DNA from: Thermoanaerobaculia bacterium
Lineage (GTDB): Bacteria; Acidobacteriota; Thermoanaerobaculia; Gp7-AA8
Reading direction: 5' to 3'
DNA length: 64,000 nucleotides
NCBI GenBank assembly: GCA_035525215.1
Contig: DATLEY010000088.1
Location: 8,159 to 72,158 of the forward strand
Position numbers and translations under genes: made by a program. Shown in pieces: positions 5,366 through 60,549 of the stretch; within the stretch, counting starts at the first letter, position 1; the number at the start of each line of letters is the position of its first letter. The notes beneath the pieces are model-generated. The model was given only the letters and a program-made list of their open reading frames with translations, ran no database searches and was not told where the DNA came from.

Positions 5366-8300
5366 GTGAAACCCCAGGAACCGATCCCGCATAACTACAG
5401 AATGTCGACGCTGAACAAGGTTTTCGCCTTGTCCAGCCTCGCGCTGCTCGCACTGGTCGGGGCGATGGTCATGTACGACTATGCGAGGGGGTGGAAGAGG
5501 TTCCAGCTGGAGTTTCTGAGAGTCCAGCGTGACCGCATCACACAGCAGCTCGAAGTGGCGCGGCGGGCGACCGGCGAAGAACAGCTCCGCGCCCTCGACC
5601 AGCGGATGAGGGAAGGGGAGGCGGACATCGCGCGGAAGCGCGCCGAGCTCCGCGAGGCCGAGGATACGGTGCGGGAGTGGGAAGGACGGCATTACCGCGC
5701 CGACCAGGACTTCCGGTTCGCCAAGGCTGTTCTCGACTCGCTCCGTTACGAGGCGGAGGTTCTCGCCCTCCGGAAGGCCCGGGGATGGGAAGGGAAGCAG
5801 CAGGAGTTCCGCGAGCAGGAAACGCGGGTCGAGCGGCTGAAGCTGGTGCTCGAGGACGTCTCGGCCAGCCGGGACGCCGCCCTGGCCCGGCGAGACGGCA
5901 TTCTCTCGCGGATCGCCGAGATCGAACGGGAAAAGAAGGATCTGCTCGCCGACGTGGAACTGCTGGAGAAGCAGCTGGCCACCGTGGATTTCAAGCGTCC
6001 GGAGTTTCTGCTCCTGAACATGCCACTGCTGGACTTCGTCAGCCCCACGCTGAAAGTCGAGCAGGTCGTGCTCAACGACATGTTCGTGGACATGAACTAC
6101 ATGGTGGTTCCGCGGGTGGATCGCTGCATGACCTGCCACAAGGGGATCGATCGGCCCGGCTTCGAATCCCGAGAAGAGGCTCAGCGGCTCATCGCGGAGC
6201 TGGAAGGAAAGCTCGACGGCTTCCAGATCGCGCCGGATCGCATCGCGGACACCATGGCGCGAATCGAGCAGCTGAGGCCCATTGCGGAAGCGCGCAGGAA
6301 TCTGAGAAATCCGTATCGAACCCATCCTCGCCTCGACATGTTCGTCGGTTCGGCGTCTCCGCATCCTCTTCTCGAATACGGCTGCACCTCCTGCCACCGC
6401 GGCCTGGATCGCGCCACGGATTTCGCGCGAGCGGGGCACACGCCCTCCTCGGAAGAGCAGCAGAAGCGATGGGAAGAACATTACGGATGGAAGCGTCAGC
6501 CATTCCTCGAATCGCCGATGCATCCCCGGCAGTACTTCGAGGCGTCATGCATCAAGTGTCACAGCGGGGAGGTCCGCGTCGACGAGGCGGATCGGATCAG
6601 CGAAGGCACTCAGATGATCGAGCTGTACGGGTGCGCCGGCTGCCACAAGATCGACAACTGGCGCTTCCAGGATCTGCGCAAGCCGGGCCCCGATCTTCGG
6701 GGCATCGCCGAAAAGACTTCTCCGGAATGGACGGTGCGCTGGCTGACCAATCCCAAAGACTTCCGCGCAACGACGCGGATGCCGTCCTTTTTCTATCTGA
6801 GGAACATGGTCGGCCCCCATATCGGACCGGCAGAACGCGAATCGAACGAGAAAAAGCAGAACGCGGAGATTCAGGCCATCGTCGCCTATCTCTTCGCGAA
6901 CTCGACGCGCAGGGGATGGCCTGAGGGCCCTTCCGGCGATCCGGCGCGCGGCGCGGCTCTGGTGGACACGGTCGGATGCTATGGCTGCCACGTGGCCCAG
7001 GAGACGGTGACGGATTCGGCGGGCGCGGTGCGCACCGCGAACCGCGACGACTTCCCGCTGGAGCGGAACTACGGATTCAACCTGGTGGGCACCGGGACCA
7101 AAACGCGTTCCGACTGGCTCTTTCACTGGCTGAAAAATCCGCGGAATTACTACCAGCAGGCCCCGATGCCGGATTTGAGGCTGACCGATCAGGAAGCCGC
7201 CGACATCACTGCGTGGCTGATGTCGCTGCGGAAGCCTGACTTCATGAACATGCCCGTGGCGCCGGCCGATCGGGCCGCCCTCAGCGAGCTGTCGCGCTCC
7301 TACATGATCACGTCGATGACCGAGCGCGAGACCGACGCCCGCCTGGCATCGATGACCAGTCAGCAGCAGCTCGTGTTCCTCGGCCAGCGGACGATCGAGA
7401 AGTACGGCTGCTTCGGGTGTCACGACATCAAGGGATTCGAAGATGCCAAACCGATCGGCACCGAGCTGACCATCGAGGGATCGAAGAACATCCATCTCTT
7501 CGATTTCGGTTTCGTCCACGATTTCGAGACGGAGTCGGGCGAACACGAGCACGTGCTGCACACCGTCCCCTCCTGGATCTACGCCAAGGTGAGAAGCCCC
7601 CGCGTCTTTGACGATCAGCGGGAGAGGGGCTATCACGACAAGCTGAAGATGCCGAACTTCTTCTTCACCAGGAACGAAGCGGAGGCCGTGACCGGCGTGG
7701 TGCTCGGTCTGACCAAGGATCGCGTGGCCCCCGAGCGCATCGCCGCGAGAACCAGTGAAGCCCGCGTGGCGCAGGAAGGACGGAAGCTGGTCTCGCAGAA
7801 CAACTGCAGGGCCTGTCACGTCGTGGATGGTCACGGCGGCGCCATCGCTCAGACCGTCGAGGATCCGGGAATGCTTCCCCCTGATCTGGGTCCGGAAGGA
7901 TCCCGTGTCCAAAGCGACTGGCTCTTCGCCTTCCTCAAGGATCCGACCGTGATGGCGCTGCGTCCATGGCTCGGCGCCCGGATGCCGACCTTCCATTTCT
8001 CGGACGGAGAGGCGGACAAGATCACTCGCTACTTCGCCGCCGACGCCAACGTCCCCACGTTCGAGACCGACGATGGCATCTCTCCGCATCCCCAGAGCGC
8101 CGCGGTCGGGGGAATCGTGTTCGACATGCTCCGCTGCGCTCAGTGCCATCCAACTCAGGCCGTCGCGGCCACCGCGGAAGCGGATCTGGCCTCCCTCGCT
8201 CCGAACCTGCAGCTTTCCCGCGAGCGGCTCCGTCACGATTGGGTGCCCGACTGGATCCTGCGCCCCAATGAGATCGTCCCGGGCACCAGGATGCCGACGA

Positions 8301-16211: not shown

Positions 16212-16628
16212 ATGGACTGGATCCGGCAGCTCCCGACGCTGAACGCGACGCTCAATGCGACGAGCGGCGTGCTTCTGGTTCTCGGCTACCTCCAGATCCG
16301 CCGTGGCGACGTCGCCCGGCACCGAAGGCTGATGCTCTCCGCCTGCATCGTCTCCGCGCTTTTCCTGGTGAGCTATCTGACGTATCACTTCTTTGCAGGC
16401 TCGACACGTTTTCAGGGCCAGGGGTGGATCAGGCCGGTCTACTTTTCGATCCTGATCTCTCACACGATTCTCGCGACGGCCATCCTTCCCATGGTCCTGG
16501 TGACGGTGTGGCACGGCCTCCGGATGAATGTCGACCGCCATCGCCGCATTGCGCGCTGGACGTATCCTCTCTGGCTCTACGTCAGCGCGACCGGCGTGAT
16601 CGTCTACCTGATGCTGTACCGGATGTAG
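16212..16628 (+). CDS. DUF420 membrane protein (CtaM-like oxidase assembly factor)
   Basis: 138 aa, four TM helices. A small family commonly found adjacent to SCO/cta genes. Confidence 0.65.
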   Translation: MDWIRQLPTLNATLNATSGVLLVLGYLQIRRGDVARHRRLMLSACIVSALFLVSYLTYHFFAGSTRFQGQGWIRPVYFSILISHTILATAILPMVLVTVWHGLRMNVDRHRRIARWTYPLWLYVSATGVIVYLMLYRM

Positions 16629-16701
16629 AGTGCTGAGTGCTGAGTGACGGTGGGTGATGACCATCGAGCACGAAAAGCGTGGCGGCGTCGCGGGCGGGTG
16701 G

Positions 16702-16932
16702 GAGTCATTCAGAGGCCGCACGGGAGGACGAGCTGGAGAGACGCTTGGTCTCGCGGCCGAAGAATCTCAGAATGCGCAGGCCGTCATCGGGTTCTTGTGC
16801 CGGTGCAGTTGCATCGTACGAACGCATCTGGACGAGAATAAGAATCCGAGATCGATCATCCCGGCTGAGATTCTTCGGCCGCGAGACCAATCGTGGCGGT
16901 ACTTCGTTCTCCCGTGCGGCCTCTGAATGACC
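16702..16932 (+). repeat. nested-palindromic intergenic repeat element, copy A (about 231 bp, MITE/REP-like)
   Basis: Terminal inverted repeats GGTCATTCAGAGGCCGCACGGGAG ... CCCGTGCGGCCTCTGAATGACC. Inner inverted repeats GGTCTCGCGGCCGAAGAATCTCAGAATGCG ... CTGAGATTCTTCGGCCGCGAGACC. Near-identical to copies at 31563, 52278 and 59660. Confidence 0.9.
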
Positions 16933-27707: not shown

Positions 27708-28342
27708 AGCCGATCATCATGCTCGCTCTGGCCGCCACGATCGGTGCTCTGCCGATCTTCCGCGCCGGAAACTCGCACCGCATGACCGAGGAGGGAAGGC
27801 GGGCATTCGCCGTTTCGGACCCGGCAGCAGCGGCAAGAAGTTTCGCTCTGGCGGACCAGTGGTCGGCGGATCCCATCGCTTCGTTCAATGCAGGGACGGC
27901 GAGCATTGCCGCCGGAAATGTCGAGGAGGGATCGAGGCTGCTCGCGGAGCTCTCGGCCGAATCCGGCGCGCTGGCCACCGATGCCCTCTTCAACCAGGGG
28001 GGCGCCGCGATGCTGCGCGAGCAGTGGGATGATGCGATCTCGAGTTACATAGAAGTCCTGAAGCGGAGCCCCCGGGATCTCGACGCCAAGCGCAATCTCG
28101 AGATCGCGCTCAGGAGAAATTCTCCGTCTCCCGAGGAGTCGGGTGCGGGGGCGCCGCAGCCTCAGCCCTCGGATCCCGACGAGAGCCCGGAGCAGGAAAC
28201 TCCTTCGCCGTCCGAGCCAGAGGAGGGTGAAACGCAGATGCCCGCGGAAGAGATCCTCCGCTCGATCGCGCAACAGGAGCGTGAAGAGATCCAACGGATG
28301 CGCCGAGAGAAGGCTCCGCATCGCAGGGTCCTCGGATGGTGA
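27704..28342 (+). CDS. TPR-repeat protein (BatC-like)
   Basis: The ATG at 27704 lies inside the 27641 ORF. Signal/TM N-terminus, then TPR-like helices and a C-terminal acidic region with a QQEREE motif. Confidence 0.55.
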   Translation: MKPIIMLALAATIGALPIFRAGNSHRMTEEGRRAFAVSDPAAAARSFALADQWSADPIASFNAGTASIAAGNVEEGSRLLAELSAESGALATDALFNQGGAAMLREQWDDAISSYIEVLKRSPRDLDAKRNLEIALRRNSPSPEESGAGAPQPQPSDPDESPEQETPSPSEPEEGETQMPAEEILRSIAQQEREEIQRMRREKAPHRRVLGW

Positions 28343-29916
28343 ATGCGCCGAGAGCCGGCGTCATCCTTCTTCTATCGCTTGCTTTGTCGAGCGGCCTGTT
28401 CGCGGACACCATCCAGATCGAGAACGCCACCGTGAGGGTAGGCGACCGGTTCCCGTTCACCGTGCTTCTGGAGGGAGATAGTGCGGAGGCTGGATCGGTC
28501 AGGATCGAGCTGAAGAACGTCGAGATCTACGGGCCAGCCGACGTTTCGCGGGAATACAGGTTCACTCCGGAGGGAAGCCGGAACGTGAAGGCGCTGACCT
28601 ACGAAGCGCGAGCCCTGGCTCCGGGAATGGGGCAGATCGGCCCGGTCCGGTTCACGATCCGCGGAGTGGAGCGCGTAGTACCGCCGATCCGGGTTCGCGT
28701 GCTTCCGGTCCGTTCCGAGTCCGAGATCCGGGGGGAGGGGGCGCTCGCGCGGATGGAGCGATCCGGACGGGAGCCGGTCGCTCTGGAAGCCGAGATCGAT
28801 CCGATGCGAGCGCGCATCGGCGAGCAGATCGTGGTCGAATGGGTCCTCTACGCGCGCGAGTCGACCACTGATCCGGCGCTGGTCGAGCTCCCATCACTCG
28901 ACGGCTTCTGGGTCGAAGAGATTCCGACGCGCGGCTCCTTTTCCACGGTCTGGAAAGACGGACGAGAGGCAACCCGGACGCTCATCCGCCGGGTTGCGCT
29001 CTTTCCGATGCGAAGCGGCGTCCTCGAGATCCCGCCGATGGCGGTGCGAGTCGGCATCTTCGGACAGCGCGGCCCCTTCAGCCGCCTCCCGTTCGGCTCG
29101 GGTCTTCTGAATGTGATCCGGGAATCGGAGCCTCGCCAGGTCGTCGTGGATCCTCTCCCCGCGGGAATCGATCTGGTCGGCGACTTCACCATGCGATGCT
29201 CCGAGCCGCGCGCGATCGGTGCGGGACCAGTCGGTTTCCGAGTGACGCTCGAAGGCGATGGCAATCTCCGGTCCGCCCCTCCGCCTCGCCTCGCCGGTTC
29301 CATCGCCGGCGAAGTGACCGTGGAGGAGGGATCGCTGGACATCGATCGCCGCGGTCAGCGGATCCGGATGACCCGGTCGTGGGATTTCGTGATCATTCCG
29401 AAAGAGCGGAAACAGTTCACGGTTCCCGCGATCGAGCTCGTGAGCTGGAGTCCGTCGCTCAACGAGCGCGTCTCCCTCCGCTGCGGGGCCTCAGCCGTGA
29501 CATTCGCGGCGAACCCTTCGCCGACGCCACACGCGGGGGGCTCGCGCTCGCGGCTGGGGGTGGTCGGAGAGCCGCGGGCCCGACGATGGCCGCTCATGGC
29601 GGGCGGGGTGATTCTGATCGCGGGTCTTCTCGCGTGGCTCGGCGTCGCGAGGACGCAGGGGCGGGCCGGGCCGCTGGAGCGCCGGATTCTCGACAGGGCG
29701 AACGAGCCGGCTCGGATGCGGGAGGAATTGAAGGCGATGCTGCGGGAACGGGGACTCGATCCGCACGGGCTCTTCCGCGCGGACTCGGCGCTGGCGGATT
29801 CTTATCGAGCACTTTCCTCCCTGATCGACGTTCTGGAGAAAGAGCCTTGGGAGAAGGAGAGATCCGAGGCGGATCTGCGGCGGCGCGTGAGAGAAATCGT
29901 ACGGAGACTGCCGTAG
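28336..29916 (+). CDS. BatD-like (oxygen tolerance) protein
   Basis: 526 aa. N-terminal signal peptide, large periplasmic region, C-terminal TM helix (MAGGVILIAGLLAWLGV) and a cytoplasmic tail. Last gene of the Bat-type operon. Confidence 0.6.
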   Translation: MVNAPRAGVILLLSLALSSGLFADTIQIENATVRVGDRFPFTVLLEGDSAEAGSVRIELKNVEIYGPADVSREYRFTPEGSRNVKALTYEARALAPGMGQIGPVRFTIRGVERVVPPIRVRVLPVRSESEIRGEGALARMERSGREPVALEAEIDPMRARIGEQIVVEWVLYARESTTDPALVELPSLDGFWVEEIPTRGSFSTVWKDGREATRTLIRRVALFPMRSGVLEIPPMAVRVGIFGQRGPFSRLPFGSGLLNVIRESEPRQVVVDPLPAGIDLVGDFTMRCSEPRAIGAGPVGFRVTLEGDGNLRSAPPPRLAGSIAGEVTVEEGSLDIDRRGQRIRMTRSWDFVIIPKERKQFTVPAIELVSWSPSLNERVSLRCGASAVTFAANPSPTPHAGGSRSRLGVVGEPRARRWPLMAGGVILIAGLLAWLGVARTQGRAGPLERRILDRANEPARMREELKAMLRERGLDPHGLFRADSALADSYRALSSLIDVLEKEPWEKERSEADLRRRVREIVRRLP

Positions 29917-29948
29917 GGGATGAGGCTAGACGAGCGATTTAAGGGATC

Positions 29949-29973
29949 AGGGTAGAGGAGCGAGGGAAGAGGG
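29949..29973. repeat. purine-rich GGGTAGAGGAGCGAGGGAAGAGGGA motif flanking repeat copy B
   Basis: The same motif occurs at 52228-52259 and, inverted, at 52547-52587. A related GAGGAGAGGAAGAGGGTGGAGAC occurs at 58883-58908. Confidence 0.6.
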
Positions 29974-30018
29974 AAAAACAGATCCCAAGCTCGTAGCGGC
30001 ATATCGCGTGCGGGTGGG

Positions 30019-30249
30019 GGTCATTCAGAGGCCGCACGCGCCAGTCGCGCAGAACACCCAATGGTGCCGCGGCCGAAGAATCTCAGCCGCGATGATCGCT
30101 GTCGGGTCCTTATACACGTCCAGATGCGTTCTTACGATGCGGGTGCGCAGGCACAAGAACCCGATGACGGTTTGCGCATTCTGAGATTCTTCGGCCGCGA
30201 GACCAATCACTCCGCGACTTCGGTCTCGCCGTGCGGCCTCTGAATGACC
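30019..30249 (-). repeat. nested-palindromic repeat element, copy B (core in inverted orientation)
   Basis: Same terminal inverted repeats as copy A. The core GCGGCCGAAGAATCTCAGCCGCGATGATCGCTGTCGGG... is the reverse complement of the cores of copies A, C, E and F. Confidence 0.9.
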
Positions 30250-30282
30250 CGCCGTCCCCGCGGGCATCGAGGCCCCGTGTAG

Positions 30283-31449
30283 TTAGGTCCCAACCGCCTT
30301 CATGGCGATCGCGTAGACCTCTCGCAGCGGGATGTTCTCGCGGCGGGCGATCTCGGCGCACGATTCAAACTCGGGGGAGAAGATCTGCCTCTCCTGCCAG
30401 CGGCTCTTCTTGAACCGGACCGGTCCAAGCGGGGTTTCCACCGTCACGATTTCCCGTTCGAGCTCGATCCGCTGCATCGGAACAAAGCGAAGTCCGATGG
30501 TGCTGGTCTCCGCAAAGATGGTGGCGACAATTCGATCCTTTTCTTCGGGCCGGGCCAGCACGGCGACGAGAGTCCCGGGGCGATTCTTCTTCATCTGCAC
30601 CGACTCAAACGTGACGTCGAGAGCGCCGCTGTCGAACAGCCGTTCCATCGTCCATCCGAGGATCTCGGGGGTGAGGTCGTCGATCTGGAACTCGATGGCG
30701 ACGACGTCCGAAACCCGAGAAGCCCCACCCTCGGCGCCCCAGAGCGCGCGCACCGCATTCGCGAAACGCTTCACATCCCGGGCACCGAGTCCGTATCCGA
30801 CTTTTTCCAGCGTCATTGGCGGCTGGGGTCCGAACGCGGTGACGTACTCCCGGAGAATCAGGGCACCGGTCGGCGTGCAGTACTCTCCCTGCAGATCGAG
30901 CTGGAAGATCGGAACACCAAGCAGCAGGTCCGCGGTCGCCGGTGCCGGAATCGGAATCGAGCCGTGACGGGTCTCCACGCGGCCGCTCCCGACGTGAACC
31001 GCGGAAGCCATCACCCGATCGGGAGCGAGATTCTCCATCGCCACGGCGACTCCGACGATGTCGACGATCGAATCGATGGCGCCGACCTCGTGAAGGTGCA
31101 CTTTCTCCACCGGCAGGCCATGAATCTTCGCCTCCGATTCACAAATCCGCTTAAACATCGAAATGCTTCTGCGCTCGGCCTCGGATGAGAGGCCGCGGTC
31201 CTTGACCAGTGTGATGAGGTCGTGGAGATTGCGGTGGACTCGCTTCTCGTCTTCGTGAATCTTCACGTCGAAGCGCGTGCCTGAGATTCCCGCCCGGGTC
31301 GCTCGCGAGATCCCGATCTCGTAGCCATCGAAAGGAAGCTTCGCGAGCTCGCGCCGGATCAGGTCCGGGTCGACACCGAGCTCGATCAGTGCGGCGATCG
31401 TCATGTCACCGGCGATTCCGGCCGTGCAGTCGAGATAGAGGAGCGTCAT
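30283..31449 (-). CDS. larC: LarC-family nickel-pincer cofactor biosynthesis protein (DUF111, nickel insertase)
   Basis: N-terminal LYLDCTAGIAGDM signature of the DUF111/LarC family, 388 aa. No larA, larB or larE is nearby. Confidence 0.8.
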   Translation of the reverse strand: MTLLYLDCTAGIAGDMTIAALIELGVDPDLIRRELAKLPFDGYEIGISRATRAGISGTRFDVKIHEDEKRVHRNLHDLITLVKDRGLSSEAERRSISMFKRICESEAKIHGLPVEKVHLHEVGAIDSIVDIVGVAVAMENLAPDRVMASAVHVGSGRVETRHGSIPIPAPATADLLLGVPIFQLDLQGEYCTPTGALILREYVTAFGPQPPMTLEKVGYGLGARDVKRFANAVRALWGAEGGASRVSDVVAIEFQIDDLTPEILGWTMERLFDSGALDVTFESVQMKKNRPGTLVAVLARPEEKDRIVATIFAETSTIGLRFVPMQRIELEREIVTVETPLGPVRFKKSRWQERQIFSPEFESCAEIARRENIPLREVYAIAMKAVGT

Positions 31450-31562
31450 TGCGGGAAGAGTACAACGGCGGGGGCCTCGGCTCCGTCGAGGAGGCGAGAA
31501 AGATTTCTAGGAGACCAGGGGCGGACGTCGCAGGGAAAGGGTTGCACGGAACGGCCGGGGGG

Positions 31563-31794
31563 GGGTCATTCAGAGGCCGCACGGGAGGACGAGGTTGAGA
31601 GACGATTGGTCTCGCGGCCGAAGAATCTCAGAATGCGCAGGCCGCCATCGGGTTCTTGTGCCGGTGCACTCGCGTCGTACGATCGCGTCTGGACGTGCGT
31701 AAGAATCCGACAGCGACCATCGCATTCTGAGATTCTTCGGCCGCAGCACCATCTCATATTCTGCGCCGGTGTCCCGTGCGGCCTCTGAATGACC
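31563..31794 (+). repeat. nested-palindromic repeat element, copy C
   Basis: Full-length copy. It starts 9 nt after the stop of the GT-C gene (minus strand) and lies 114 nt upstream of the larC start. Confidence 0.9.
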
Positions 31795-46603: not shown

Positions 46604-46670
46604 GTCAGATTCTTCGGCCGCGAGACCAATCGTCTCGCCACTTCGGTCCCCCGTGCGGCCTCTGAATGAC
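46604..46670 (+). repeat. partial (right-half) copy D of the nested-palindromic repeat element
   Basis: GTCAGATTCTTCGGCCGCGAGACCAATCGTCTCGCCACTTCGGTCCCCCGTGCGGCCTCTGAATGAC matches the right inner inverted repeat plus the right terminal inverted repeat of copy A. The left half is absent. Confidence 0.8.
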
Positions 46671-46791
46671 TTCCGGCGCGGTTCGCGCCGCTGCGCAGTC
46701 GGCCTGCCTGGCATGGAGGTAAACTCCCAGCTCGTGTACACGCTGGAGCGTGTCTCAACGTCCAATCCGAAAGAAGAGGAGAGGTGACGTG

Positions 46792-49714: not shown

Positions 49715-50823
49715 GCGAGCTCTCGCAGATGCGGGTTGCCGTGGTCCACGACTGGCTCACCGGCCAGCGCGGAGGCGAGCATGTCCTCGAGGCGATCCTC
49801 GAGCTGGTTCCCTCCGCGGAGATCTTCACCCTCTTCCACTTCCCCGGCCGCGTCTCCGCGGCGATCGAGAGACACCCGATTCGAACGAGTGCCCTCCAGG
49901 CGTGGGCCCTCCGTGTTCCCGATTACCGCCACCTTCTGCCGTTCTTTCCTCGGGCGGTGGAGCGGTGGGATCTGAGCGGCTTCGATCTGGTGATCTCCTC
50001 CAGCCACTGCGTGGCGAAGGGAGTCCAGAGCGAGGCTCCGCACCTCAGCTACTGCCACACGCCGATGCGGTACATCTGGGACCGTTTCGACGATTACTTT
50101 CCCCGATCACGTCCCCTTCGGCGGATGGCGGGGAAGGCGATCGCACCATGGCTGCGCCGATGGGATCGCGCCAGTTCTTCGCGCGTCGATCATTTCGTCG
50201 CCAACTCCGCCTTCGTGGCCGATCGGATCCGGCGCTTTTACGGACGGGAGGCGGAAGTGATTCACCCATTCGTGGACGCCCGCTTTTTCGAGCCGCCTCT
50301 CCGCCAGAATCGTGAATCTTTCCATCTCGTTCTCTCGGCCCTCGTCCCGTACAAGCGCATCGATCTCGCGATTGAAGCGGCGGCGCGGGGAGGGGAACGA
50401 TTGATCATCGCCGGCTCGGGTCCGGGCCTCGAGGAACTATCGAAGAAGGCCGGCCCGAACGTCGAGCTGCGCGGATGGGTCACCGATGGCGAGATCCTCG
50501 ACCTGCTGAGCCGGGCTACCAGTCTGATCATTCCGGGCATCGAGGACTTCGGGATTACCGCGCTCGAGGCGCTGGCCTCTGGAACGCCTGTCGTCTCGAT
50601 TGCCGCCGGAGGAGTGCCGGAATCCATCGTTCACGAATCCTCGGGTATTCTCCTCGAGGAGATGAATGCGGAATCGCTGCTCGGAGGGATGCGCGAAGCA
50701 GCATCGCGACCGTGGGACCGCGCTGCCATGCGCGCGCGCGCGGAAGGGTTCAGCCGGCGACGTTTCCAGGATGAGCTCCGTAATTCGATCCAGAGGGTCG
50801 TGGCGGGAGGCCGCCGGGGATGA
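49711..50823 (+). CDS. glycosyltransferase family 4 (GT-B, retaining)
   Basis: C-terminal GT4 motifs (ERLIIAGSGPG ... IPGIEDFGITALEALASGTPVV). Alternative ATG at 49729. Confidence 0.8.
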   Translation: MSELSQMRVAVVHDWLTGQRGGEHVLEAILELVPSAEIFTLFHFPGRVSAAIERHPIRTSALQAWALRVPDYRHLLPFFPRAVERWDLSGFDLVISSSHCVAKGVQSEAPHLSYCHTPMRYIWDRFDDYFPRSRPLRRMAGKAIAPWLRRWDRASSSRVDHFVANSAFVADRIRRFYGREAEVIHPFVDARFFEPPLRQNRESFHLVLSALVPYKRIDLAIEAAARGGERLIIAGSGPGLEELSKKAGPNVELRGWVTDGEILDLLSRATSLIIPGIEDFGITALEALASGTPVVSIAAGGVPESIVHESSGILLEEMNAESLLGGMREAASRPWDRAAMRARAEGFSRRRFQDELRNSIQRVVAGGRRG

Positions 50824-52223
50824 TTCAGAGGAAGTACGAGCGGCTCGCAGCCGTCTATGTGATCAATGACGTCGCCGCCTCGGCGATGGCGCTGATGATG
50901 GCGTATTGGCTGCGGTTCGCCGTTCAGGTGATTCCCCTGACCAAAGGACCGCAGGAGCTCGCGATCTACGCGCGGATCCTTCCTCTGGTTTTGCTGGTGT
51001 TCCCTCTCGCCTTCGCCTTTCAGGGTCTCTACAGGATCCGGCCGACTCGTCGTCCAGTGGAGGAATGGGTCGCGGTGACTGCGGCTACGGTTCTCGGGTC
51101 GCTGGCTCTTTCCGGAATCCTCCTCTGGTTTCGCCCTGAGGGGGTGCTCGTGGAGTACTCCCGAGCAATGCTTGGTCTCTTCGTGGTGTGCGAGATCGTG
51201 CTCGTCATGGCAGGCCGGACGCTCGTCCGGCGCGCGATGCAGCGGCGGTATCGGGCGGGTCGCAGCCTCGAACGGGTGCTGGTGGCCGGGAGCGGCGAGC
51301 TGGCGAAAGCCGTGGTGGCCAGACTGCGGTCCCATCAGGAGCTCGGGTTTTCGCTGGCCGGCTATGTCTCCGAAGAAGGGGCGATCGAAGGGCTGCCCCG
51401 GCTCGGATCCCTGGCCGACGCAGGGAAGGTCGTCACGGCCGAAGGAATCGACCATGTGTTCGTGGCGCTGCCGCACGGTTCGTCGTCGCAGATGATGGAG
51501 CTGCTCGACCGGTTGACCCGGGAAACGATCGCGTCGCTGCACGTCGTCCCCGACCTTCTGCAGTTCATGGCCATTCGCTCGCGAGTCGAGGACGTGGACG
51601 GCCTTCCGACGATCAACCTCTCGGAGACGCCGCTCGACGGCTGGAGCCTCGCACTGAAGCGGCTGTTCGATCTCGCTTTCGCGGCGATCGCGTTGATCCT
51701 TCTCGCTCCCCTGATGCTGATCGTTGCGCTGCTGATCCGCCTCGAGGATCGAGGGCCGGTGTTCTACCGGCAGATCCGCATGGGCCTCGACGGCGTCGCC
51801 TTCCAGATTCTGAAGTTCCGATCCATGCGCATCGACGCGGAGACGGACTCGGGAGCGAAGTGGGCGGATCGTGAAGATCCGCGGCGGACGCGGATGGGGC
51901 GATGGATCCGCGCCTGGTCGCTCGACGAGCTGCCACAGCTGCTCAACGTGATTCTGGGCGAGATGAGCCTCGTCGGTCCCCGGCCCGAGAGGCCCGAGTT
52001 CGTCGCGCTTTTCCGCGCCGAGTATCCGCACTACATGCTTCGGCACAAGGTTCGAGCGGGAATGACCGGGTGGGCGCAGGTCCACGGCTGGAGGGGAAAC
52101 ACTTCCGTGAGGATGCGCCTCGAGCACGACCTCTATTACATCGAGAACTGGTCGCTTCTGCTGGACCTCAAGATCCTTCTGATGACGCTCCGCCACGGGC
52201 TGAAGCACGAGAATGCGTATTGA
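50820..52223 (+). CDS. undecaprenyl-phosphate hexose-1-phosphate transferase (bacterial sugar transferase, WbaP/EpsB-like)
   Basis: Four to five N-terminal TM helices, a Rossmann-like middle domain, and the C-terminal signature DELPQLLNVILGEMSLVGPRPERPEFV. ATGA overlap with the GT4 stop. Confidence 0.85.
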   Translation: MIQRKYERLAAVYVINDVAASAMALMMAYWLRFAVQVIPLTKGPQELAIYARILPLVLLVFPLAFAFQGLYRIRPTRRPVEEWVAVTAATVLGSLALSGILLWFRPEGVLVEYSRAMLGLFVVCEIVLVMAGRTLVRRAMQRRYRAGRSLERVLVAGSGELAKAVVARLRSHQELGFSLAGYVSEEGAIEGLPRLGSLADAGKVVTAEGIDHVFVALPHGSSSQMMELLDRLTRETIASLHVVPDLLQFMAIRSRVEDVDGLPTINLSETPLDGWSLALKRLFDLAFAAIALILLAPLMLIVALLIRLEDRGPVFYRQIRMGLDGVAFQILKFRSMRIDAETDSGAKWADREDPRRTRMGRWIRAWSLDELPQLLNVILGEMSLVGPRPERPEFVALFRAEYPHYMLRHKVRAGMTGWAQVHGWRGNTSVRMRLEHDLYYIENWSLLLDLKILLMTLRHGLKHENAY

Positions 52224-52227
52224 GGCA

Positions 52228-52259
52228 GGGAAGAGGGTAGACGAGCGAGGGAAGAGGGA
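52228..52259. repeat. purine-rich GGGAAGAGGGTAGACGAGCGAGGGAAGAGGGA motif immediately 3' of the sugar transferase stop, flanking repeat copy E
   Basis: See 29949-29973. An inverted partner lies at 52547-52587. Confidence 0.6.
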
Positions 52260-52277
52260 GATCGAGCGGGGGAGGCG

Positions 52278-52508
52278 GGTCATTCAGAGGCCGCACGGGA
52301 GACCGGAGTGGCGGGAAGAATGGTCTCGCGGCCGAAGAATCTCAGAATGCGTAGACCGTTGTCGGATTCTTGTGCCGGTGCACTCGCATCCTAGGAACGC
52401 GTCTGTACGTGTATAAGAACCCGACAGCGATCATCGCGGCTGAGATTCTTCGGCCGCGACGCCCAGCTCATATTCTGCCCGGCTGACGCGTGCGGCCTCT
52501 GAATGACC
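52278..52508 (+). repeat. nested-palindromic repeat element, copy E
   Basis: Full-length copy between the convergent sugar-transferase (+) and hemL (-) genes. Both flanks carry the purine-rich motif in inverted orientation. Confidence 0.9.
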
Positions 52509-52546
52509 CACCACCCTCACGCCTTCTGCCTGCGAACGCCGCCTCT

Positions 52547-52587
52547 CCCTCTCCCCTCGCTCCTCTACCCTCTTCCCTGAACTTCCC
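52547..52587. repeat. inverted copy of the purine-rich motif (CCCTCTCCCCTCGCTCCTCTACCCTCTTCCCTG), immediately 3' of the hemL stop on the minus strand
   Basis: Its reverse complement is CAGGGAAGAGGGTAGAGGAGCGAGGGGAGAGGG. Confidence 0.6.
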
Positions 52588-53886
52588 TCACTTCTCGAAT
52601 TCCCAGACGATCTTCTTGAAGCCGCGGTCGGCGCGCTCGACGATCTGCTGAACGTCCTTCTTGGCGTGAGCGGAGGAGAAGAAGGCCGCCTCGAATTGTG
52701 AGGGGGGGAGATAGACGCCGTCGTTGAGCATGAGGTGGAAGAAACGACTGAACTTTTCGAGATTGGATTGGCGGGCCGACTCGAGGTCCACGACCGGCCC
52801 CTCCGCGAAGAAGATCGTCCACATCGAGCCGACGCGGTTCAGCGTCACGGCGATCCGGTGCTTCGCGGCGGCCTTCCGGATTCCTTGATCGAACTCCGAT
52901 GATCGGAGCTCGAGCTCCTTGTAAATGCCCTCGTTCTTGAGAATGCTGAGCGTCGACTTCCCGGCCGCAACCGCGAGCGGATTTCCGGAAAGCGTCCCGG
53001 CCTGATACATCGGACCGACTGGCGACACCAGATCCATCAACGCTCTGGGACCCGCGTACGCGGCGAGAGGAAGACCCCCACCGATGATTTTTCCGAGGGT
53101 CGTGATGTCGGGCGACACGTCGTAGAGCGTCTGCGCTCCTCCCCATGAGACGCGAAACCCGGTCATCACCTCGTCGAAGATCAGAAGGGTCCCGGTCGAG
53201 TCGCAGAGACGTCGCAGCCCGCTGAGAAAGCCGTCCGCCGGCGGGATGCATCCCATGTTTCCGGCGACCGGCTCGACGATGATCGCCGCAAACTCTTTCG
53301 GAAGCTCGTTGAGAATCCGCTCCACCGCACCGAGGTCGTTGTAAGGAGCGCTGTGGGTGAGCGCAGCCAGTTCCGGGGGGACTCCGGCGGAGTCGGGCTT
53401 GCCGAAGGTGAGGCCGCCCGATCCGGCAGTGACCAGAAGCGAGTCGACATGCCCGTGATAGCCGCCGTCGAATTTCAGGATCCTCTTTCTCCCGGTGGCC
53501 GCTCGCGCCAGCCGGACCGCGCTCATGGTGGCCTCTGTCCCCGAGTTCACGAGCCTGACCATCTCCACTGAGGGGAAGGCGTCGATGATGATCTCCGCGA
53601 GATCGATCTCCGCCGCCGTCGGCGCGCCGTACGAGAATCCCTTCGTTGCCGCTTTCTTCACCGCTTCGACCACGTAACGATGTGCGTGTCCAAGGATCAG
53701 CGGACCCCACGACCCTACACAGTCGATGTACTGGAGGTTATCGACGTCGAAGATGCGCGATCCCTGTCCCTGATCGATGAAGGGCGGCGTGCCGCCGACG
53801 GCTTTGAACGCTCGCACGGGAGAGTTCACGCCGCCAGGAATCAGCTCTTGAGCTTTTTGAAAGAGAGTCTCGGATTGTTTGCCCAT
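52588..53886 (-). CDS. hemL: glutamate-1-semialdehyde 2,1-aminomutase
   Basis: Contains GGVNSPVRAF and DEVMTGFR, with the PLP Lys region. ATG at 53886 inside the longer 54072 ORF. Confidence 0.9.
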   Translation of the reverse strand: MGKQSETLFQKAQELIPGGVNSPVRAFKAVGGTPPFIDQGQGSRIFDVDNLQYIDCVGSWGPLILGHAHRYVVEAVKKAATKGFSYGAPTAAEIDLAEIIIDAFPSVEMVRLVNSGTEATMSAVRLARAATGRKRILKFDGGYHGHVDSLLVTAGSGGLTFGKPDSAGVPPELAALTHSAPYNDLGAVERILNELPKEFAAIIVEPVAGNMGCIPPADGFLSGLRRLCDSTGTLLIFDEVMTGFRVSWGGAQTLYDVSPDITTLGKIIGGGLPLAAYAGPRALMDLVSPVGPMYQAGTLSGNPLAVAAGKSTLSILKNEGIYKELELRSSEFDQGIRKAAAKHRIAVTLNRVGSMWTIFFAEGPVVDLESARQSNLEKFSRFFHLMLNDGVYLPPSQFEAAFFSSAHAKKDVQQIVERADRGFKKIVWEFEK

Positions 53887-55601: not shown

Positions 55602-55765
55602 GGGAACGATGATAACGCGGCGGGGCTGTGGTTGTGGCGCCGGCCTCCGGCCGGTTGGCGTGAAGAGTGGCGGGCGGCGTCCCGCCGCCCAGCCCCGATC
55701 CAGGAACGGCGGGCTCACGCACCCTGTCTGCTGAAAGCCGGCGCCCCGGAGAAGCGCTCACACAG

Positions 55766-56595: not shown

Positions 56596-56756
56596 CTGTG
56601 CCGCCGGCTGGCGCGCGAAGCGCGCTTCATCCGAAGATTTTCGCGGGGGTGGGGGCTGGGCGGCGAGACGCCGCCCGCCACTCTGTACCGCCGGCTTGCA
56701 CGGCCTGAGAGCCCGCGCGCTTCGCGCGCCTTACCGGCCGGAGGCCGGCGGTACAG
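56596..56756. other. GC-rich inverted-duplication / hairpin array between the rluD stop and punA start
   Basis: CTGTGCCGCCGGC...GGCGCGCGAAGCGCGC (56596-56625) is partly repeated at 56683-56695. It is present inverted as GCGCGCTTCGCGCGCC...GCCGGCGGTACAG (56715-56756). The sub-hairpins CCGGCCGGAGGCCGG and GCGCGCTTCGCGCGC are also present. Confidence 0.7.
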
Positions 56757-58828: not shown

Positions 58829-58862
58829 AGCCGGGCCGCACCTTTGGGTGCGGCCCTTTTCA
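58829..58862 (+). terminator. rho-independent terminator
   Basis: Perfect stem GGGCCGCACC / GGGTGCGGCCC with a TTT loop, followed by TTTTCA, 30 nt after the stop of the secreted protein. Confidence 0.8.
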
Positions 58863-58901
58863 TGGCCACGACTCTGCAGAGGAGGGGAGGAGAGGAAGAG
58901 G

Positions 58902-59582
58902 GTGGAGACTCAAAAAGGGAAAGAGCGCCGGTTCCAGCGGCTCCGCTTCGAGCAGCCGCTGGCTGCGCAGTTCGGGTCCGTCGAAACGGAGGTGCTCGAC
59001 CTCTCCCTCCAGGGCGCCCGCCTGGTCCACCTCCAACCTCTTCAGGCCGGCCGGGAAGCCGACCTGCGGTTTCGTCTGATCGACCGGGAGATCGTGGTTC
59101 GGTCCCTGGTTCTCCGCTGCAAGCTGGAGACTCCGGCGGTCGGGGCGAAGGGCAATCTTTACGCCTCCGGGATCCAGTTCACAGGCTCGGCCGGACCCTT
59201 GCGCGAGGTCATCGCCGAGCGGGTCCTCCATGCACTCGAGGAGCAGGTCGCGAACAAGAGGGGAGACTTCATTCCGCTGGCGGACCGGATGACGATCTTC
59301 CGCTCCGAGGATGTCCTTTCCCTGAAAGTCCCGCCGGGGCAGCAGCATGCCTTTCGTCCTCCGGGGGATGAGTTCGTATTGTGCACGCCCAGCGAGCGGG
59401 GATGGCGGCAGGTCCGGACCCGGGAGCAGCGTCAGCCTCTCGACGGATTCACGGTCTCCGGGTTGGAGGATCCCGCTCACATCGAGCTTCTCTGCGCGAC
59501 CTACCGGAAGTCCGACGAGGAGATGCGGAAGATGATCCGGATGCTCGCTGAGATCAGCGTCGGGATGGCCCAGGGGGTGTGA
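58902..59582 (+). CDS. PilZ-domain protein (putative c-di-GMP receptor)
   Basis: Contains RRFQRLRF (RxxxR) and DLSLQGARL (DxSxxG) PilZ signatures. GTG at 58902 preceded by a purine-rich GGAGGGGAGGAGAGGAAGAGG. Confidence 0.5.
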   Translation: METQKGKERRFQRLRFEQPLAAQFGSVETEVLDLSLQGARLVHLQPLQAGREADLRFRLIDREIVVRSLVLRCKLETPAVGAKGNLYASGIQFTGSAGPLREVIAERVLHALEEQVANKRGDFIPLADRMTIFRSEDVLSLKVPPGQQHAFRPPGDEFVLCTPSERGWRQVRTREQRQPLDGFTVSGLEDPAHIELLCATYRKSDEEMRKMIRMLAEISVGMAQGV

Positions 59583-59659
59583 TTCCGGGGGCCCGGCGCA
59601 ACCGGCGAGGGGGGCTCTGGAGGACCCCGGACCCGGCTGTCAGCGAGGAAGGCAGAGGG

Positions 59660-59888
59660 GGTCATTCTGAGGCCGCACGGGAGACCGCAGTGGCGGTAGG
59701 ATTGGTCTCGCGGCCGAAGAATCTCAGAATGCGCAGGCCGTCCTCGGGTTCTTATGGCGGTGCACTCGCATCGTACGAAGGCGTCTGGACGTGTGCAAGA
59801 ACCCGACAACGATCATCGCGGCTGAGATTCTTCGGCCGCGAGGCCATCTCATATTCTGCGCGGCTGGCGCGTGCGGCCTCTGAATGAC
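59660..59888 (+). repeat. nested-palindromic repeat element, copy F
   Basis: Full-length copy between PilZ (+) and rimP (+). It has a TCATTCtGAGG variant in the left terminal inverted repeat. Confidence 0.9.
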
Positions 59889-60081
59889 ACCCCTCACGGT
59901 TCGCGCCGATGCAAGTTTTTGCGAGTCAATTCGTCGCCCCGCGAAGAGGCTCAACGCGTGGAATGGCTATCAGATACGCCGTGTTGTCGCTTTTGCGCGT
60001 GGGGTGATACCATGCGTATCGACAGCTTTCGATTCATCGCGAAAGCGGCCGACTGGCCGCTTTTTTTATTGCTCGAACGGA

Positions 60082-60549
60082 ATGGCGGAACTTCCTGAAA
60101 AAGTCGCGGAGGAGATCGGCAAGATCGTTACCTCGGAGGGTTTCGAGCTCGTGCACATCGAGTTCAAGCCCAACGGGAGGAACTACTTGCTGCGAATCGA
60201 CGTGGACAAGGAAGGGGGGATCACCCTCGGTGACTGTCAGCTGGTCAGCAACCAGGTCAGCGTCTACCTTGACGTCGAGGACCCCGTTCCCGGGTCGTAC
60301 GACCTCCAGGTCTCCTCGCCCGGCCTGGACAGGAAGTTTTACACCGAATCGGATTACCCGAAGTTCGTGGGGCGGCTGGTGAAAGTGAAAACCTCACGCG
60401 CAATCGGCGGACTCCACGTGATCGTGGGGAGACTGCAGTCGTACGACGGGCAGCAGATCGTCGTGGTGGACGAGAAAACGAAGAGCCGGAAGTCCTACGA
60501 GATTCCGATGGCGGAGATCAAGGAAACACGGCTGGAAGTCGAGATTTAA
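60082..60549 (+). CDS. rimP: ribosome maturation factor RimP
   Basis: Contains GFELVHIEF ... YLLRIDVDKEGGITLGDC ... LQVSSPGLDR. Conserved position upstream of nusA. Confidence 0.85.
   Translation: MAELPEKVAEEIGKIVTSEGFELVHIEFKPNGRNYLLRIDVDKEGGITLGDCQLVSNQVSVYLDVEDPVPGSYDLQVSSPGLDRKFYTESDYPKFVGRLVKVKTSRAIGGLHVIVGRLQSYDGQQIVVVDEKTKSRKSYEIPMAEIKETRLEVEI

Follow-up and report, generated by a model that had tools for sequence, protein, structure and literature searches.

A degenerate G-rich tandem array abutting three stop codons in a Thermoanaerobaculia genome and its relation to a palindromic element

Motif copies and flanking genes

The DNA analysed here (the window) is a 64-kb stretch of the metagenome-assembled genome (MAG) of one uncultured soil acidobacterium of the Thermoanaerobaculia, and the feature under study is a short purine-rich motif that follows the stop codons of three of its genes: a BatD-domain gene (batD), a Bac_transf sugar transferase gene and hemL, which encodes glutamate-1-semialdehyde aminomutase (Table 1). 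The transferase gene and hemL converge on one spacer that holds two of the copies (B and C, respectively), and the window contains two independent motif loci, the other being the single copy after batD (copy A). All three copies are purine- and G-rich in the sense of the gene upstream of them.

An exact 24-mer, GGGTAGASGAGCGAGGGRAGAGGG, is common to the three copies (29950-29973(+), 52235-52258(+) and 52547-52570(-)); three occurrences were observed against zero expected, with no match in 100 dinucleotide-preserving shuffles. The sub-motif GAGGGAAGAGGG occurs five times in the window at up to one mismatch, each time within one of these copies. A scan of the window with an nhmmer profile built from the three copies detected only those copies and an extra unit at batD, and gave no support to degenerate copies suspected by eye at ~31527-31545 and 59640-59659. 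The motif is thereby confirmed as a real, non-random dispersed repeat.

The first-pass annotation of this DNA had placed the motif directly 3' of the three stop codons, and exact matches, translations and Pfam domains bore this out, with its coordinates 1-7 nt off or inclusive of flanking bases. The exact 24-mer starts 12-34 nt past the stop codons; the array to which it belongs is already under way 0-3 nt past them, beginning at the base directly after the batD TAG, 3 nt after the transferase TGA and directly after the hemL TGA. It also holds, for all three copies, that the motif has the stop codon on one side and, on the other, a copy (30019-30249 or 52278-52508) of a 231-bp palindromic element that resembles a transposable element of the miniature inverted-repeat type (MITE).

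The position of the HemL C-terminus agrees with that in relatives to within ~1 residue of length. In the relatives L006, L007 and L011 the gene after the hemL spacer is likewise the transferase, and on the strength of this synteny we rejected an assembly artefact at the junction; in L010 and L012 a different gene follows.

Table 1. Coordinates of the motif copies, their flanking genes, the palindromic element and the hemL spacers of relatives. Positions are those of the window unless another locus is named.
Feature	Coordinates	Strand	Basis or remark
BatD-domain gene (batD)	28336-29916	+	Translation, Pfam BatD; TAG stop 29914-29916
Bac_transf sugar transferase gene	50820-52223	+	Translation, Pfam; TGA stop 52221-52223
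hemL (glutamate-1-semialdehyde aminomutase)	52588-53886	-	Translation, Pfam; TGA stop 52588-52590
Array A, first 21-nt unit, GGGATGAGGCTAGACGAGCGA	29917-29937	+	nhmmer profile match, E = 0.1
Motif copy A (unit 2 and partial unit 3)	29943-29975	+	Exact 24-mer; nhmmer E = 1.5e-6; no inverted partner
Motif copy B, left (outer) arm	52226-52261	+	Exact 24-mer; inverted pair I21; nhmmer E = 3.3e-7
Motif copy C, right (outer) arm	52544-52579	-	Exact 24-mer; inverted pair I21; profile match
Motif 31-mer relevant to quadruplex formation, GGGAAGAGGGTAGACGAGCGAGGGAAGAGGG			
Palindromic element, full copies	16703-16932, 30019-30249, 31564-31794, 52278-52508, 59660-59889		231 bp, MITE-like
Palindromic element, half copy	46604-46671		
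Palindromic element, copies elsewhere	L002 2181-2411; L003 395-625; L005 5863-6031		
Element subterminal segment CTCGTAGCGGC...GGGTGGGG	29990-30018	+	Outer boundary; 15-16 nt from motif copy A
Purine tract with Shine-Dalgarno region and GTG start (58901) of PilZ	58875-58910	+	Purine scan, Pfam
hemL spacer of L006			(GCGTCTGGA) x 7.4 from 8 nt past the hemL stop; inverse x 5.2 ends exactly at the transferase stop
hemL spacer of L010			(TTCTCAG) x 7 and its inverse
hemL spacer of L007			(GGGAGTC) x 2 after the stop and a different MITE-like element
hemL spacer of L012			Related MITE-like element a few bases after the hemL stop
hemL spacer of L011			73 nt; no tandem array

Repeat anatomy

The motif had been described as internally repeated, and this proved correct: CAGGGAAGAGGG and GAGGGAAGAGGG are spaced 21 nt apart, and Tandem Repeats Finder (TRF) reported a 21-nt period at 52227-52280 (2.5 copies, 82% matches). 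A 7-nt period was also reported on both arms of the transferase/hemL spacer, more weakly, with 65% matches at 52227-52259 and 77% at 52542-52578. By direct reading, the compound 21-nt unit consists of the three heptamers GGGAAGA-GGGTAGA-SGAGCGA, of which the last is without a G tract. The batD array comprises 2.5 units with a 5-nt insert, TTTAA, after the first; that unit, GGGATGAGGCTAGACGAGCGA, equals the unit GGGAAGAGGGTAGACGAGCGA at 19 of 21 positions (direct reading). The 36-nt motif is ~90% purine, and identity between loci is 89-91%; the first-pass annotation's term, purine-rich motif, under-describes what is a lineage-specific, degenerate tandem array with a 21-nt unit of three heptamers and G3 tracts in heptamer register. 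The 21-nt period might recall heptad codons, and we considered and rejected a coding or read-through extension; the copies stand in different frames relative to the stop codons, and copy A contains an in-frame TAG.

A fourth, related site had been proposed at the PilZ gene. The tract there is, as proposed, a ribosome-binding region; it includes a GTG start and is the only other 30-nt stretch of the window with at least 87% purine; a canonical intrinsic terminator lies at 58833-58856. Its membership of the family did not stand. The motif profile failed to detect the tract even at E = 100, no such purine tract is found upstream of the PilZ orthologue in L006, and we estimate that its likeness to the motif is within chance, given a near two-letter alphabet.

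The PilZ tract bears on a reading in which the motif is a Shine-Dalgarno-like purine tract or a sponge for a protein (for instance, GGA motifs for CsrA) and acts on translation and not through structure. The motif does contain AGGAG and several GGA triplets, and the window's one other tract of this kind is a true ribosome-binding region. Against this, no start codon, gene or plausible open reading frame (ORF) lies 3' of copy A, B or C, which led us to reject a ribosome-binding site, and the next gene is convergent; moreover, the conservation of a 24-36-nt block far exceeds what a ribosome-binding site needs, and full base pairing is predicted for arms B and C. We consider such a role very improbable.

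Predicted hairpin formation, terminators and quadruplex potential

Copies B and C are inverted arms that are complementary at 34 of 36 positions (94%, inverted pair I21). A single 36-nt motif has no fold of its own (0.0 kcal/mol, no pairs), and the duplex of the two arms was computed at -69.8 kcal/mol. Since the arms pair around the palindromic element nested between them, the entire 370-nt transferase/hemL spacer is predicted to fold from stop codon to stop codon as one hairpin of -243.6 kcal/mol (z = -16.2), with the minus strand folding at -245.6 kcal/mol; the nested palindromic element by itself gave -148 and -136 kcal/mol. The transferase stop codon is paired at the base of this giant hairpin, and both stop codons are paired in the predicted fold. 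Copy A is solitary and unpaired in the RNA fold.

Neither spacer holds an intrinsic terminator by our search: no terminator-like site was found in 51800-53000, and the scan of 29500-30700 returned a single weak site that lies inside batD on the antisense strand. Across the window, terminator-like sites were no commoner than in shuffled sequences, and ~2 were convincing. With no U tract, the motif spacers themselves were rejected as intrinsic (Rho-independent) terminators. Loading of Rho on the C-rich complement is conceivable for the solo copy; in the B/C pair, the arm would be sequestered in the stem, and this candidate was also set aside. Searched against Rfam at its gathering thresholds, the window gave no match to any family.

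An alternative to the hairpin is that the motif acts as a G-quadruplex element: its four G3 tracts on the coding, non-template strand after the stop codon would form a quadruplex, in RNA or in DNA, at which RNA polymerase pauses or which gives protection to the 3' end. Four tracts in the arrangement G3-N4-G3-N11-G3-N3/4-G3 are kept in each of the three copies with every variable position in a loop, G4Hunter scores range from 1.29 to 1.65 (1.35 for copy A), and RNAfold with quadruplex energies predicted a quadruplex in isolated arms B and C. The copies account for 3 of the 13 such G-tract patterns in the 64 kb, and repeats of the same class in Xanthomonas and Nostoc, which follow the same rule of location and strand, form quadruplexes in vitro (PMC4692102). 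However, the 11-nt central loop makes the predicted stability marginal, the duplex of about -70 kcal/mol competes in the B/C pair, and confinement of variation to the loops would arise by chance at ~0.14 with three copies (our estimate). The arrays of relatives described below (GCGTCTGGA, TTCTCAG, GAATGCA), in turn, are unable to form three-tier quadruplexes. As an account of the motif as a whole we find the quadruplex quite improbable.

Arrays in the orthologous spacers of relatives

The motif itself appears confined to its lineage. A pattern with 22 specified bases had no match in the genome, metagenome and viral contig collections (the source MAG is not among them), and the profile search found the motif absent from 130 kb of relatives' loci. 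HemL of these relatives is at most 82% identical to HemL of the window. For batD, the homologue search matched only BatD itself, and no cross-genome comparison of that spacer was obtained. A search of the literature on repeats in Thermoanaerobaculia returned nothing relevant.

What the relatives do have at the orthologous hemL spacer is other repeats (Table 1): inverted tandem arrays without the palindromic element in L006 and L010, each pair folding across its spacer, and MITE-like elements in L007 and L012. Thus, in four of the six relatives examined, the spacer that carries the motif in the source genome carries unrelated inverted arrays or a different MITE-like element. Our list for ~67 kb of relatives' DNA comprises 22 intergenic arrays whose periods are 7, 9 or 18 nt, mostly as inverted pairs and some with super-periods of 14 or 21 nt; they occupy convergent, co-directional and divergent spacers. 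The link to stop codons is accordingly strict for the motif (3 of 3 copies) and not for the array class as a whole. To judge from these comparisons, the motif is probably one lineage-specific instance of an array phenomenon found across Thermoanaerobaculia.

In L006, two ~115-nt units that are ~95% identical (2671-2784 and 7053-7173) consist of inverted arms around a conserved core, (GAATGCA)n-core-(TGCATTC)n. These two copies indicate that elements with array arms do disperse. The unit is a foldback-like dispersed element, and one of its copies lies between divergent genes.

Relation to the palindromic element

The palindromic element is present in the window as five full copies and a half copy (Table 1). 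The copy 30019-30249 is on the minus strand, inverted relative to the other copies, and 52278-52508, on the plus strand, is nested between arms B and C and is 92% identical to a copy in another MAG. Identity between the two MAGs (83-92%) is as high as among the copies of the window (83-89%). A MAG with the label Rhodothermales also has a copy, ~73% identical. For the element's terminal repeat, the metagenome and viral contig collections gave no match, and a 19-mer of the element matched at least five loci in the genome contig collection.

When the outward flanks of the copies were aligned (A1), a conserved segment, AAACTCGYAGCGGC, emerged in a subterminal position beyond the element's inverted ends; motif-less copies in the window and in L002 and L003 have it too. 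Because this alignment puts the true boundary of the element 0-16 nt from the motif, the motif lies outside the element. The distance from motif to element varies (19, 35 and 45 nt). Two of the five full copies carry the motif, or 3 of 11 element ends if the half copy is counted; it is missing from the other three full copies and from the half copy, and also from the two copies seen in another Thermoanaerobaculia MAG (L002, L003). Since element copies without the motif exist here and in that MAG, the two are separable. Recent duplication of motif and element as one composite was also considered and set aside; the two element copies that adjoin the motif are 87% identical, no closer to each other than to the rest, a figure that favours neither view.

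These data speak to the idea that the motif is the outer terminal inverted repeat, built of ~21-bp transposase-binding units (two helical turns), of a composite transposon with a ~354-bp long form (52226-52579), from which the batD copy has lost one arm. The long form does have terminal inverted repeats, 36-nt arms with 94% complementarity that bracket the element. Copies A and C also agree in their side of the element and in their orientation relative to it, their spacers are ~72% similar (an estimate by hand alignment), the identity of the motif between loci is similar to the 87% of the element, and the L006 units with array arms disperse as wholes. The unequal distances between motif and element, and the element copies that are without the motif in both MAGs, argue against it. 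Furthermore, there is no target-site duplication around 52226-52579, where the left flank ends in TGAGG and the right flank begins with AACTTCCCTCA, and the complementarity extends into the stop codons. The 64 kb contain one unit with two arms besides the solo arm, and none was found in the 130 kb of relatives' loci or in the genome, metagenome and viral contig collections; with a single two-armed copy and no target-site duplication, a stand-alone MITE at these coordinates was rejected. No transposase was found in a Pfam scan of ~19 of the ~53 window proteins, and other element copies are joined to unrelated arrays. We regard the composite transposon as doubtful.

One of these unrelated arrays, (GAGTGCT) x 2.7 at 16628-16646(+), overlaps the TAG stop of a DUF420 gene and adjoins the element copy 16703-16932: this is the same architecture as at the motif loci in another sequence. 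The other is in L012, a distant relative, where (CAGTGCN) x 6 comes after the transferase stop and a related element with ends GTCATCCTGAGGCCGC comes next. Within the window, an array is present on a stop-codon side of every element copy that sits in a convergent spacer (three of three) and beside none in a co-directional spacer (zero of three), small as these numbers are.

The first-pass annotation had suggested that the motif may be a preferred insertion target, that is, that the array or its hairpin is actively sought out by the palindromic element. Such behaviour has precedent in IS1397 and ISKpn1, which target the loops of repetitive extragenic palindromic (REP) sequences. The part of this idea that fits is the order of events: because the element occurs without the motif and the orthologous spacers of relatives have inverted arrays without the element, the array hairpin is likely to have come first and the element to have been nested in it later. 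Active preference is a different matter. It would agree with the 0-16 nt that separate all three motif copies from the extended boundary of the element, with the element at the centre of the inverted pair, with the arrays at all three convergent-spacer copies and with the order of stop codon, array and related element at the orthologous transferase 3' end of L012. With only two loci, however, it is indistinguishable from co-accumulation in convergent spacers, which are so short (73 nt in L011) that two repeats adjoin by necessity, and half of the element copies are without a nearby array. Active targeting is therefore possible but, in our judgement, unlikely.

ORFs of 60-80 aa traverse copies of the element (30025-30267(-), 30061-30243(+), 31570-31752(-) and 31606-31788(+)), and the start of the longest RimP ORF (59884; 59884-60100) falls inside a copy, with the Pfam RimP domain beginning only at residue 78. 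Gene callers may thus give spurious or over-extended ORFs at element copies.

Comparison with known repeat families

The closest known class is that of the G-rich heptamer repeats of Xanthomonas (GGGAATC) and Nostoc PCC 7120 (GGGGA(C/T)T) described by Rehm et al. 2015 (PMC4692102). Those repeats are over-represented in non-coding DNA, prefer four units and occur as ~70 convergent pairs capable of forming stem-loops per Xanthomonas genome; they vary widely between close relatives yet stay between the same genes, their quadruplexes were demonstrated in vitro, and their function is unknown (PMC4692102). The motif shares all the features that could be tested here: G3 tracts in heptamer register, four tracts, a non-coding site less than 50 bp after the stop with the G-rich strand as coding strand (0-3 nt for BatD, Bac_transf and HemL), convergent inverted pairs, and a fast turnover of length and sequence with the intergenic position kept. 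By pattern and prediction, its four G tracts also appear competent to form a quadruplex. It differs in that its unit is a degenerate 21-nt compound and not a clean heptamer, that one 33-36-nt version is found as a dispersed block at both loci, and that a mobile palindromic element is attached to it, whereas the repeats of Rehm et al. had, in general, no association with mobile elements (PMC4692102); the host, too, is different, being an acidobacterium.

REP sequences, bacterial interspersed mosaic elements (BIMEs) and the REP doublets that form hairpins (REPINs) are likewise short, lineage-specific intergenic repeats (Di Nocera et al. 2013, PMC3733652; Bertels & Rainey 2011, PMC3116915). As with the motif, they lie mostly 3' of genes, between convergent or co-directional ORFs, pairs in opposite orientation form larger hairpins, and singlets occur beside doublets. 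Unlike REPs, the motif is not an imperfect palindrome of 20-40 bp and has no fold of its own, its GTAG is internal (GGGTAGA) and not an unpaired tag at a stem end, and no REP-associated tyrosine transposase (RAYT) was found among the window proteins scanned. Being non-palindromic and without an end tag, it was rejected as a REP.

Two other comparisons are more distant. The short tandemly repeated repetitive (STRR) heptamers of cyanobacteria, reportedly described by Mazel et al. in 1990, and the TAACTGA repeats of Beggiatoaceae are, like the arrays described here, intergenic tandem heptamers of 2 to tens of copies, with lineage-specific sequences and a function that is unresolved. The TAACTGA direct repeats are found immediately upstream of start codons and hardly ever in inverted form (MacGregor 2015, PMC4679880), unlike the window arrays, which follow stop codons and include an inverted pair. 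The FB and Galileo foldback transposons of Drosophila have internally repetitive terminal inverted repeats (PMC3573991), inverted arms of short tandem units around a core of which the (GAATGCA)n unit of L006 is a small bacterial look-alike. This is a likeness of architecture only: FB and Galileo are eukaryotic, of kilobase scale, and encode or depend on a known transposase, and no transposition features were found at the motif loci.

Proposed origin and role

On balance, we propose that the motif is a slippage-prone spacer array, that its inverted pair forms the base of a long transcribed hairpin and that the palindromic element is a later, nested insert. We give this proposal about even confidence. 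It builds on the repeat anatomy, the pairing of the arms, the abutment of stop codons, the independence of the element, the lineage specificity of the motif and the recurrence of analogous arrays in relatives, all of which are observed. The motif would belong to the heptamer-type arrays that fill Thermoanaerobaculia spacers, usually as convergent (inverted) pairs; such arrays would arise and change in length by replication slippage and would be tolerated, or perhaps useful, in short convergent spacers. Two inverted copies would make up the basal 36-bp stem of the transferase/hemL hairpin, the batD spacer having one arm, and the 231-bp element in the hairpin apex would most likely be a later nested arrival.

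As for function, such a structure, if transcribed, may act at the 3' end as a barrier or stabiliser that stops read-through between convergent genes or blocks 3' exonucleases there. A stem that starts at the stop codon might also hinder terminating ribosomes in the manner of REPs; those of E. coli that lie within ~15 nt of the stop codon reportedly stall terminating ribosomes (work of Liang, Rudd and Deutscher from 2015). For the solo batD copy, a sense-strand G-quadruplex is a possible alternative.

Several points weigh against this proposal. The heptamer periodicity is weak (65-77% matches), and a 33-36-nt block is kept as a unit between loci, which slippage alone does not explain; some mechanism of dispersal is needed for this block. 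The occurrence of all three motif copies within 16 nt of the element boundary is what a composite mobile unit would also give. In relatives, arrays are also found near start codons between divergent genes, and this speaks against a dedicated 3'-end role; nor are those arrays G-rich, so that G-tract function and hairpin function cannot both unify the class. The evidence, finally, comes from two independent loci in 64 kb of one genome.

A bolder version would have fast-evolving array hairpins at stop codons, often with a nested element, as a functional and repeatedly re-invented 3'-end module of Thermoanaerobaculia that replaces scarce intrinsic terminators between convergent genes and tunes termination-coupled ribosome stalling, with the element family homing specifically to arrays. 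We think this improbable. Should such hairpins indeed act as terminators or modulate the termination of translation, they would account for the insulation of convergent genes in genomes where canonical terminators are few; as selfish or slippage DNA that is no more than tolerated, they would be an ordinary finding. The motif extends the class of stop-adjacent G-rich heptamer arrays known from Xanthomonas and Nostoc to Acidobacteriota, and palindromes and arrays of this kind affect the assembly of MAGs and gene calling, as with the spurious ORFs that run through them.

Further repeats in the window and in relatives

Other repeats of related design were seen in the window and in its relatives. 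At 981-1012 of the window, (GAACGCA) x 4.6 lies between co-directional genes with a single inverted unit as its partner. The gene of a PNP_UDP_1 phosphorylase is bracketed by 38-nt inverted repeats with 92% complementarity (55664-55701 and 56647-56684), and its L006 orthologue by a pair of 18-mer arrays and the (GAATGCA)n element. The spacer between PilZ and RimP holds the palindromic element (59660-59889) in the window and a (GAATGCA)n array element in L006 (2504-3000). In different lineages, the same spacers have taken up different hairpin repeats.

Some sequence likenesses run across these families. Many heptamers of L006, L011, L012 and the window share a GAATG/GAAYG core (GAATGCA, GAACGCA, GAATGAA, GAATGTT, GAATTGA and GGAATGA), which resembles the terminus of the palindromic element, ...CTGAATGACC, and the 9-mer of L006, GCGTCTGGA, is also found at the centre of that element; both likenesses may be coincidental. 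The same 3' spacers of L007 (3495-3680) and L012 (11300-11480 and 14770-14940) are taken up by further palindromic families of MITE-like build, whose ends are GTCATCCCGAGCGTAGCGAGGGATC and GTCATCCTGAGG..., and these families share a GTCATYC terminus with the palindromic element of the window.

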